Source: Oceanispirochaeta sp.
GTDB lineage: Bacteria; Spirochaetota; Spirochaetia; DSM-2461
NCBI GenBank assembly: GCA_963666275.2
Contig: CAXXOA010000001.1
Coordinates: 2,080,001-2,144,000, forward strand
Length of the DNA: 64,000 nt
Reading direction: 5' to 3'
Shown here: piece by piece, positions 15,001-18,000 of the stretch
Position numbering within the stretch: position 1 is the first letter of the stretch
How the letters are laid out: each line of letters starts with the position of its first letter
Position numbers: made by a program

Positions 15001-18000
15001 TTGACCACATAGTCCACAGCTCCGAGCCGTATGGCATGAATGATTTTTTCCTGATCGCTCAGGGATGAACACATTATGACCCGGCAGTCGGGATAGGCCC
15101 TTTTAAGACTTTTCAGAGCTTCCACCCCGTTCATTCTGGGCATGACGATATCAAGGAGAACAAGGTCGGGAAGAAGAGATTTATACCGGGAGAGGCATTC
15201 AATGCCGTCCCCCGCTTCTCCCACGACCTGATGACCGCTTTCCATAACGATCTGAGAGATAATAGACCGCATAAAGGGCAGATCATCAACAATTAGGATT
15301 CTCATTCCTGCTGTGTTCCCGACCAGAGATATTTCAGATAGGAATCAATGAAAGGATCCAGATCACCATCCATGACATTCTGAATATTTCCCGTTTCATG
15401 CCTTGTCCGAAGATCTTTTACCATCGTATAGGGATGAAAAACATAGGACCGGATCTGAGATCCCCATCCAATGTCCTTTTTTTCAGCCGCTGTAGCTGCT
15501 CTTTCTTCATCCTGGACCTGTTTATAATACTCATACAATCGGGACTTCAGCATTTTCATGGCAATTTCCCTGTTTTTAAGCTGACTCCGTTCATTCTGAC
15601 ACTGAACAACAATATTTGTTTCCAGATGGGTAATCCGGATGGCACTGCTTGTTTTATTAACATGCTGTCCTCCCGCTCCGGAAGCCCTGTAGGTATCAAC
15701 CCTGATATCCTCGGGGCGGATATCCACCTCAATGGAATCATCAATGACAGGAGAGACATAGACCGAAGCAAAGGAGGTATGCCGGCGGGCATTGGAATCA
15801 AAGGGAGAGATCCGGACAAGCCGGTGTATACCGCCCTCCCCTTTCAGGTATCCGTAGGAATAGTCTCCCTCGACTTCGAAGGAGATCGATTTGATCCCCC
15901 CTTCTGCTTCTACAAGGTCCATGACAGTAATCTTGAATCCTTTTCTTTCGATCCAGCGGTTGTACATTCTATAGAGCATACTGGTCCAGTCACAGGCTTC
16001 CGTACCGCCTGCCCCGGAATGGATCGTTATGAATGCAGGGAGAACATCTGTCTCCTCGCTGAGAAGCTCCAGTGAGTTCAGCTGATCAAAAGTTTCTTTC
16101 AACCTGTCCATCTGGGACTGGATTTCGCCTTCCAGAGACTCATCCTTCTCTTCCACAGCCAGTTCGTAGAGCTCTTTCAGATCTTCCATATCCGAAGCAA
16201 GCTTTTCCCATGGTTCAAACTTGTTTTTAAGTCTTTTGAGCTGTGCCAGTTTTTTTTCGGCATTTTCCCTGTCATTCCAGAAATTCGGGTCTCCCGACTC
16301 GATTTCCAGTTCTTTGGCCTGACTTTTCAACACATCTGTGTCAAAGTCCCCTCCAGGTATCAAGGATATCCCTTCCAAGGGATTTAATTTGTGCTGACAT
16401 ATCGCTAAGCATTTGAGCCTCCGTTCGTTTTTTCTTTCAATACGTTTCGTCTCCACCGTTTCTCAGTCAGTGAAGTAATTACAAGCCGGCCCTCAATCGG
16501 GTACTGGTAAATTCTCACAGAATCATAGAAATCAGTAGCCCGGTCAATATCTAATTTCAGCCGGGAGAGATTGTTTTCATTTATTGACAGTGATTCAAAA
16601 GTATTTTTCTGTATCTGCTTAAACCCGTAACGGAAAAGTAAATTCTGAACAACCTTTTCACTGTCTTCATTCCCAAGATCAACAACAATGGATACAAACA
16701 TTTCCTATACTCTATTTGCGTCTTGCCCAACTGTCAATATAGATCTTAAAACAAAGTCACTTCTCCGCTTTCCGCCCCTTCATGACTCATGTTCAGAGCG
16801 TTTTCCCGGTCTGCTGATTTCTTATGTCTGAAAATGGTAAATTTATCTGTGAGTTTTTCAATTTTCTCACTGCTCAGTTCCCAGTTTTCATAGGGACTCT
16901 CTTTCAGAGTCCTTTCAAATTCAGAAGAGTAGTACACGGCTCCCTTCTCTATCTGGATCATCACCTGTTCCAGCTGTTTTTCAAGCCGTCCCATAGAGAG
17001 CAGATCCTTCATGGATTTGTTATAGAACTCATTGTATCTATCTCCCAGAAGAATCACATCGGAAGTACAGGCATCAACATAAACATGTGACTCCTTCAGC
17101 TCTTCCAGGCCGTTTTTGAGATCCGAGATAAAAAGATCCAGAGTCCCCTCATCTGCCTGGAAATCCCTGAAAAAATTCGTGAAAAGCTGATCCGTTCTGT
17201 TTTTGAACTCTTTAATGGTGGAAACAATATCCTCCACATTCTTTTCCAGTGATTCTGTTCTTACACTGATATTGTCTATGAGGATCCCCATATTCAGCAG
17301 ATTCGGCAGTTTTGCCGCCTCAACCCGGCTGGAGATATTTATCGTTTTTATATGGCTGATAATACCGATGTATCTTTCCGATGATTCCACCAGAGCATTG
17401 ATCTCTTTGATGATCATATCAAAACTGGTTTTCAGATACTTTCTTGTATATCCCTTCCTGATAACAGAGGAATTCCTGAACAGGGATTCTTCGTATTCCT
17501 GAATTTTCAAAGAATAGGAGTCATCATCATTTTTTGAATGAAAGTCTTTGCCTATTTTTTTGATGGTTTCATAGAAGGATGAAAAATCGGCGGATTTCGT
17601 CTGAAAGATTTCGAGAGTTTTATGCAGATCATCCAGTAGATCAAAAAGTATTTCATAACTCATCTGATAGATTCTGTGCTGAAAGGAGAGGGAATCCAGT
17701 TTCTGTTCTATTGTGGATCCCTGATCAACAGGCTCTTTCAATGAATAGATAATATGTTCAATGGACTGTCTGATAATATCATGTTTCTGGACTTCCTGGA
17801 GAATCTTATAGAGGGGTTCCTTTATTCTTCCCACCCCTGTTATCAGATGATCTCCGAAAAGCTGCAGCTGATCCCTGTATTCCAGATGGATTTCTAGCAT
17901 CTGGGCAATGGTGGATTCCATCTGCTTGGTTGCATTATTGAGTTCTTTTTTTTCATTCTGTATTTTTTCAAGGAATTCCCGGAAGATCCTGTCCATAACG

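Follow-up and report, generated by a model that had tools for sequence, protein, structure and literature searches.

Cas2 usually serves as a universal marker for CRISPR adaptation; the Cas2 of Legionella is said to have a CRISPR-independent role as well. According to the accessible text of one study, the C-terminal strand of Cas2 is required for Cas1 binding, a pair of Asp residues is the proposed catalytic centre, and the preference for DNA or RNA is not predicted by loop lengths (PMC10491678). The nuclease activity of Cas2 is called unexplained in the available sections of two reviews (PMC8987985, PMC6452270). CRISPR-free Cas2-fold proteins and solo adaptation proteins are already known as a kind. 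BPSL1038, as presented in the available text, represents a Cas2/VapD nuclease sub-family that has the Cas2 fold in bacteria without CRISPR; it is 10-15% identical to Cas2, is closer to VapD and carries a D-x20-SST motif and a C-terminal helix (PMC10491678). Solo-Cas4 is an adaptation-module family found outside CRISPR loci, mostly in archaea and small-genome bacteria, where it is inherited vertically under purifying selection, and the accessible part of that paper mentions no solo Cas2 (PMC5704561). For the spirochaete Leptospira, the sections available of PMC9510766 describe a Cas2 that has no CRISPR array beside it and lies within a cas subtype I-C locus. VapD toxins, known from H. pylori, H. 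influenzae and C. jejuni, belong to the same fold family and have an N-terminal Asp.

The locus analyzed here lies in a 64,000-nt stretch of an Oceanispirochaeta genome (the window), and it contains a gene for a 98-aa Cas2-like protein. The family to which this protein belongs resembles BPSL1038 in having a Cas2 fold without CRISPR and a retained Asp pair. In contrast to what the available text gives for BPSL1038, members of the present family share about 30% identity with Cas2 and probably head a translation and secretion operon; the D-x20-SST motif and C-terminal helix are absent, respectively, from the family column profile and from the model, which ends in strands (72-79 and 82-88). With solo-Cas4 the family shares vertical inheritance and purifying selection outside CRISPR loci, but the protein is a different one, and it is separate from the Leptospira Cas2 as far as tested.

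The Cas2-like protein matched Pfam CRISPR_Cas2 (PF09827) over aa 1-66 with 31.2 bits (cut-off 23.8, E 2.5e-7) and scored under the cut-off of TIGR01573, the NCBI cas2 equivalog (19.4 versus 24.5 bits). Its best PADLOC models were Cas2 and Cas2_IIIa. In a family alignment of 40 members, PF09827 was matched at E 0.01 by 24 and TIGR01573 by 26, the latter count using the E threshold and not the equivalog cut-off. A weak ISAon1 match (E 0.0057), present in 1/40 members, was rejected. The AlphaFold2 model, built from a 32-row alignment, had a pLDDT of 90.5, with predicted strands at 2-8, 28-31, 34-37, 61-69, 72-79 and 82-88 and helices at 12-24 and 42-55. When this model was searched against 48,161 PDB representatives, the top 13 matches were all Cas2 or Cas2-containing (Z 8.2-11.1). 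The first non-Cas2 match was PaaX (Z 7.7), and VapD followed at Z 7.0 and 6.6, placing the fold nearer to Cas2 than to VapD. Foldseek also ranked Cas2 first, yet none of its rows attained E 0.001. The Pfam score, the model and the ranking of PDB folds agree with the initial annotation, which had called this a Cas2-fold protein.

The same annotation had stated that the genome contains no Cas1 and no CRISPR array, and our searches gave the same result. Cas1 was not found in this genome (97% complete) by a family search, the control for which was positive in 7/14 genomes, or with 28 Cas1 queries and an HMM run over 62,070 reading frames. Those reading frames contained one copy of the Cas2-like family. 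A k-mer scan detected no repeat-spacer array; all 18 periodic regions found were tandem copies or single-word chance matches. Coverage of cas genes was limited to cas1, cas2 and 122 ORFs that flank cas1 in relatives. Three of the flanking ORFs matched this genome, and the two that were scanned corresponded to a Schlafen/HTH protein and a histidinol dehydrogenase. Since the genome-wide PF09827 search overlooked the Cas2-like gene itself, family searches can miss short genes, and each absence was therefore verified both by inspecting the prfB locus and by running local HMMs. The term "CRISPR-less" is accurate for this genome and for the locus, as 771 kb of sequence flanking 136 unique loci yielded no cas1, but it does not extend across the order, in which 10/31 carriers have cas1 elsewhere in the genome.

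The family was present in 31 of the 38 genomes of the order, with one match each, in 6/6 genera and at 45-97% identity, as originally noted. Across the class, it was found in 161/401 genomes that were at least 90% complete and in 76/154 genera. Its occurrence was mostly all-or-none by taxonomic family (13/13, 9/9, 7/7 and 10/11 versus 0/55 and 0/37). In a sample of the phylum, 56/401 genomes matched with either alignment (42 inside the class and 14 outside). In a scan of GTDB, 387 relatives were confirmed, and among the best 80 of these the titles were mostly those of spirochaetes, with four titled only "bacterium" or "uncultured bacterium" and one Desulfovibrionaceae. Named carriers include Oceanispirochaeta crateris, Gracilinema caldarium and Treponema OMZ strains, oral treponemes are among the carriers, and the database label of named members was "CRISPR-associated Cas2" throughout. 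When 1.84 billion representatives were searched with a profile, 56 matched; the two lowest of the 31 inspected (E ~6e-4) were ordinary Cas2. Relatives were absent from 50,697 phage records, 72,556 plasmid records and IMG/VR, and viral structures matched the model only at E >0.001 with 8-19% identity. These data confirm that the Cas2-like proteins are a distinct family outside CRISPR that is broader than first noted. The family is apparently undescribed, as no description was found in the main text of the open-access literature; clusters of this kind, outside CRISPR islands, may be listed in the supplement of PMC12669027. It is not mentioned in the accessible portions of reviews of CRISPR exaptation and classification (PMC8730458, PMC12669027) or of papers on CRISPR origins (PMC8987985, PMC6452270).

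The features of the locus are listed in Table 1. For comparison, 160 loci with the Cas2-like gene were collected, of which 136 were unique; 14 of these came from outside the class and the other 122 did not belong to that set. The gene had been described as lying directly upstream of, and co-directional with, prfB, and this arrangement was seen in 30/30 loci returned for the order and, within 400 nt, in 119/122 loci at the level of the class, the remaining 3 ending at contig edges. A concern had been that synteny with prfB is lost in more distant families. Instead, the link holds across many families of the class, together with a shared promoter. From the stop codon of the Cas2-like gene to the true prfB start, the median distance was 16 nt; it was no more than 30 nt in 82/111 loci, and the genes overlapped in 13 (8 loci without a called start were excluded).

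Table 1. Features of the Cas2-like locus, in window coordinates
Feature	Position	Strand	Evidence
Closely spaced continuation of six genes after ftsY	2614..12546	-	ORF lists
ftsY (SRP54-type GTPase)	12547..13464	-	PF00448, PF02881
PEGA-domain protein	13487..14947	-	PF08308
Single-domain response regulator (CheY-like), variable across the class	14940..15305	-	PF00072
prfB second frame (release factor 2)	15302..16342	-	TIGR00020, 504.5 bits vs 370
prfB first frame, 23 codons; start (16412) overlaps the Cas2-like gene by 8 nt	16344..16412	-	Frameshift motif in 117/119 loci
Solo Cas2-fold gene, 98 aa	16405..16701	-	ORF translation, Pfam match, AlphaFold2 model, fold comparison, family alignment
Shine-Dalgarno-like GGAGG of prfB, within the 3' end of the Cas2-like gene	16418..16422	-	Sequence, gene junctions
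Predicted sigma-70-type promoter TTGACA-17 nt-TAGAGT, ends 7 nt before ATG	16709..16737	-	Promoter-pattern scan
MCP-like chemotaxis gene, upstream neighbour, outside the unit	16746..18515	-	Weak MCPsignal and BB0569 matches below cut-off

The RF2 gene is expressed by a programmed +1 frameshift. In this genome, the first frame of prfB stops at the frameshift site CTT-TGA-C (TGA at 16341-16343), and the motif was found in 117/119 loci; a GTG-started prfB ORF of 384 aa (15302-16456) was discarded as an artefact of the frameshift. The six genes beyond ftsY presumably encode, judging from their translations, a 345-aa hypothetical protein and LolE-like, LolD-like, LolE-like, ClpC-like and TPR-like proteins. 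Their spacing suggests that they would be co-transcribed with the operon, and LolE/LolD-like genes were located 3' of ftsY in 5 wider loci. On the other side, the gene upstream of the Cas2-like gene is large and varies (divergent in 67/109 loci, co-directional in 42/109), the MCP-like gene occupying this position in 10 loci, all from genus g1. We rejected a connection with chemotaxis because a che cluster lies upstream in genus g1 only and the regulator after prfB varies independently.

The promoter was the best-scoring of 15 promoter-like sites between 7000 and 19000, a region for which shuffled sequence also gives 15. The pattern TTGAC-N-17/18-TAnnnT, defined after the loci had been inspected, ended 5-9 nt before the start codon in 108/122 loci, compared to 36/3761 long ORFs of the Oceanispirochaeta genome analyzed here, and an SD-like motif preceded the Cas2-like gene in 8/122. 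From this spacing, transcription probably starts at the Cas2-like gene, which would be the leaderless first cistron of a prfB-PEGA-ftsY operon that continues into the Lol-like genes. Leaderless mRNAs are documented in Borrelia in the available text of PMC5314773.

The relationship to CRISPR-type Cas2 was examined with an unrooted tree of 97 rows and 97 columns, which contained 63 of the 136 family members and 34 CRISPR-type Cas2 (32 from cas1 loci of the same genomes and 2 of unknown context). A single long branch with support of 100/99 separated the two groups. Since the tree has no root, we infer, and do not observe, that the family descends from CRISPR Cas2 rather than sharing a common ancestor with it. 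For the 118 loci with a full prfB, the Cas2-like tree was compared to the prfB tree: 29 of 33 well-supported splits were identical, 31 were compatible and 2 conflicted. Distances in the two genes were correlated (Mantel r 0.78, rank correlation 0.47). Joint transfer with the adjacent prfB would give the same agreement between trees. In six groups, each with only 1-18 unsaturated pairs, dN/dS of the Cas2-like gene was 0.039-0.063, and that of the prfB core was 0.009-0.065. The gene is inherited vertically, as the initial annotation had proposed, and together with prfB, and it is under strong purifying selection. Co-inheritance with prfB, the low dN/dS and altered adaptation features also give good support to its claim of a domesticated Cas2 rather than a remnant of an adaptation module. 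We consider it very probable that the family is domesticated and non-CRISPR.

The altered features were identified by comparing the 136 members to the CRISPR-type set. Over its core (aa 3-65), the family can be aligned with CRISPR-type Cas2 (hhalign prob 97.3), the nearest models being type III-A-like, and shares with it the ferredoxin-like fold and residues Gly26, Glu36, Asp60, Arg63 and Tyr65. Position 8, the catalytic-site Asp at the end of strand 1, is Asp in 125 members, Glu in 10 and Ser in 1. Apart from this core, and from the lack of a nearby cas1 or array and the vertical inheritance, the family differs in several motifs. Y-D-[IV] was found in 1/136 members versus 34/34 CRISPR-type proteins, [RH]-x-Q-x-S-x-F in 2/136 versus 34/34, and a hydrophobic C-terminal pair, used as a sequence proxy for the Cas1-docking strand, in 2/136 versus 32/34; the comparison set leans to the Y-D type since two Y-D-type Cas2 had seeded the profile used to collect it. 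The helix-1 region has a net charge of -1.0 versus +3.8, its basic Arg patch being gone. New in the family are invariant Lys49, Gln66, Pro68 and Trp83, a near-invariant Asp57, a Q-[YF]-P motif, an additional pair of strands in the model and, in 127/136 members, a K-[KR]-W-[RK]-R-like motif; residues 70-90 carry a net charge of +3.0 and the invariant Trp. By these alignments, the predicted Cas1-binding and adaptation surfaces of Cas2 have been remodelled in the family. E. coli Cas2 contacts DNA through Arg14, 16, 77 and 78, according to the accessible text of PMC8390960. In an ungapped count by eye from strand 4, Arg82-Trp83 falls at Arg77-Arg78 of that protein. Residues 1-92 of the model superposed on 4qdl_E over 83 residues at 3.0 A, and a profile comparison with E. 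coli Cas2 gave no alignment (prob 0.13). The position of the K-R-W-R-R motif at Arg77/Arg78 is treated here as a lead only.

The explanation we prefer, at slightly better than an even chance, is that the protein is a non-essential, Cas2-derived RNA-binding or RNase accessory factor. A CRISPR Cas2 would have been domesticated early in the class of this genome and placed at the head of the prfB-PEGA-ftsY operon, where its sigma-70 transcript would be leaderless. The constitutive housekeeping promoter would carry the gene along, with no need for the protein to act on RF2. It would dimerize in the manner of Cas2, the two Asp8 residues meeting at the two-fold axis, and would have lost Cas1 docking. 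The invariant or near-invariant Lys49, Asp53, Asp57, Gln66 and Pro68, together with the hairpin that carries the basic and aromatic residues of K-[KR]-W-[RK]-R, would bind cellular nucleic acid, most likely RNA. Metal-aided, Asp8-dependent cleavage of the bound nucleic acid could also occur. In this role the protein would assist RNA turnover or gene expression. If the family is domesticated, a nucleic-acid-binding or nuclease mechanism is a reasonably good bet.

Another possible explanation is that the gene regulates its own operon. Either translation of the leaderless ORF, or the protein acting on its own mRNA or promoter, would tune the output of RF2, FtsY and Lol to the ribosome pool, or the protein would act with RF2 on the ribosome. 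The conserved first position, leaderless layout and tight spacing are consistent with this. However, non-carriers argue against it. At 16/16 non-carrier prfB loci (6 of the order and 10 others, 15 of them from genomes 88-99% complete), the Cas2-like gene was absent without a remnant, the frameshift motif was kept in all 16, and the promoter pattern before prfB was kept in 4. Since these 4 keep the promoter ahead of prfB, it is accounted for by prfB's own need, and the persistence of prfB and its frameshift indicates that RF2 works without the Cas2-like protein. A tie to loss of the RF2 frameshift was rejected on the same 16/16 count. In addition, prfB has its own SD, and no Rfam RNA family was matched at 14000-19000. 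The 14 members outside the class do not fit either: all were SD-led, none had the promoter pattern, and prfB was found in none of the fetched stretches (one contig was <3 kb). Their neighbours, a TPR protein, an 810-830-aa protein and membrane proteins, gave no functional clue. In the tree these 14 group as a clade on a long branch that arises from within the prfB-linked members, which suggests transfer or relocation but may be an artefact. We regard it as unlikely that the gene regulates its own operon, also in the form of an RNA-binding regulator heading an RF2-FtsY-Lol operon that would couple termination-factor and export capacity to the ribosome state through the K-R-W-R-R hairpin and Asp pair, and a direct role in termination is doubtful to a slightly greater degree. 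The initial annotation had called the gene fixed and had tied it to termination or co-translational targeting. It is not fixed, as the order has 7 non-carriers and in 6 of them an assembled prfB locus is without it; the seventh, G004, had no prfB match either, so its absence is probably an assembly gap. The functional tie is not supported, given the several lineages where prfB, the frameshift and, in four, the promoter stay without the gene, and the 14/14 unlinked members outside the class. The Cas2-like gene is dispensable.

RNase activity of Sulfolobus Cas2 reportedly needs the Tyr before the Asp and three Arg. Several of these residues have no conserved counterpart in the family, and thus the Cas2-like protein may be catalytically dead. 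It could then be a protein-binding adaptor or scaffold, with the Cas2 dimer serving as a structural module like the central domain of PaaX. The loss of the canonical basic helix and of the catalytic neighbours would agree with this, as would the many invariant positions that are acidic or structural and the rank of PaaX as first non-Cas2 fold match. Retention of Asp8, or Glu in 10 members, and the positive charge of residues 70-90 around the invariant Trp point the other way. No longer fused form of the family was found among 7,998 candidates, a weak test, and no neighbour was seen to be lost together with the gene at the non-carrier loci compared. An adaptor of this kind seems improbable to us.

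A VapD-like toxin, that is, an mRNA interferase for dormancy or defence whose antitoxin is elsewhere or unneeded, is very unlikely. There is no room for a cognate antitoxin because the promoter abuts the ATG and prfB follows closely, and the upstream genes are large, variable and in most loci divergent. The model lacks the VapD helices, and its fold match to VapD is lower than that to Cas2. Typical toxin-antitoxin loci are not single-copy, vertically inherited and off mobile elements, as this gene is. The least probable reading, a trans-acting helper or inhibitor of CRISPR adaptation for any Cas1 acquired, would fit the database label and the cas1 found in 48/86 carriers tested (10/31 in the order, 30/41 and 8/14), but no cas1 was matched in the other 38, an ordinary cas2 was present at 30/30 cas1 loci fetched from carrier-set genomes, cas1 was frequent in non-carriers (5/7 in the order and 6/10 elsewhere), and the Cas1-docking tail is absent.

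The family is a natural experiment in which a Cas2 without Cas1-related features retains, under strong selection, its catalytic Asp; some of the hosts, oral Treponema among them, are in culture, so that CRISPR-independent Cas2 function becomes directly testable. Several hundred spirochaete entries named "CRISPR-associated Cas2" are probably misnamed. The family is a further example of a CRISPR component exapted for core physiology and, if the gene did prove to regulate its operon, a core CRISPR protein would have become a factor for translation control in most families of the class.

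In this genome, the solo Cas2-like gene is preceded by an MCP-like gene and a chemotaxis cluster whose members, named from our reading of the translations, are CheB-, CheR-, CheA-, CheY-, CheW-, CheD- and Hpt-like. The cluster looks like an insertion in genus g1, the only genus found with this neighbor, because a hypothetical-type gene lies immediately 5′ of the Cas2-like gene in 13 loci from other genera. Similar-looking genes resembling the 588-aa gene of the window were found 5′ of the Cas2-like gene in the order, and in non-carriers of the order similar-looking genes of this kind precede prfB directly.

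Features around the operon (window positions) and tandem arrays of the genome (contigs C1 and C2)
Feature	Position	Strand	Remark
345-aa protein gene	11509-12546	-	Downstream of ftsY; no Pfam or NCBIfam match
Chemotaxis cluster and MCP-like gene	18493-24786	-	Between 588-aa hypothetical gene and Cas2-like gene
588-aa protein gene	24845-26611	-	No Pfam family
Tandem arrays	C1:1669212-1676632, C1:2589720-2590100, C2:1472312-1472796, C2:2261065-2261246		49-86-nt near-identical units

The real start of prfB is at 16412, overlapping the Cas2-like gene, and a programmed +1 frameshift, CTT-TGA-C, lies at 16341-16346 (minus strand). The GTG-started prfB ORF from a mechanical call (15302-16456) is wrong.

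Outside the class, the 14 family members that form a clade (L071-L084) are Shine-Dalgarno-led and unlinked to prfB. Near the Cas2-like gene, four of these loci encode a 684-aa TPR protein, and four encode a protein of 810-830 aa that belongs to no clear family. Loci L111 and L161, titled Borreliella garinii and Desulfovibrionaceae, are probably from mislabelled assemblies since these titles fit poorly with tree placement or spirochaete-type gene order. In four cas1 loci from Treponema-like genomes (L207, L208, L209 and L211), two cas2 genes that differ from each other are adjacent.

The four tandem arrays were rejected as CRISPRs since unique spacers are absent. Several share a short palindrome-like core, and the arrays are possibly REP-like elements.

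Genome-wide, the layout seen at the Cas2-like gene, with the predicted promoter abutting the ATG, recurs at 36 long ORFs, approximately 18-fold over the rate at random ATGs. These include regulators and genes that, judging by their N-termini, resemble secA, murA, ptsI and proS. This suggests that leaderless genes form a wider set in this genome.
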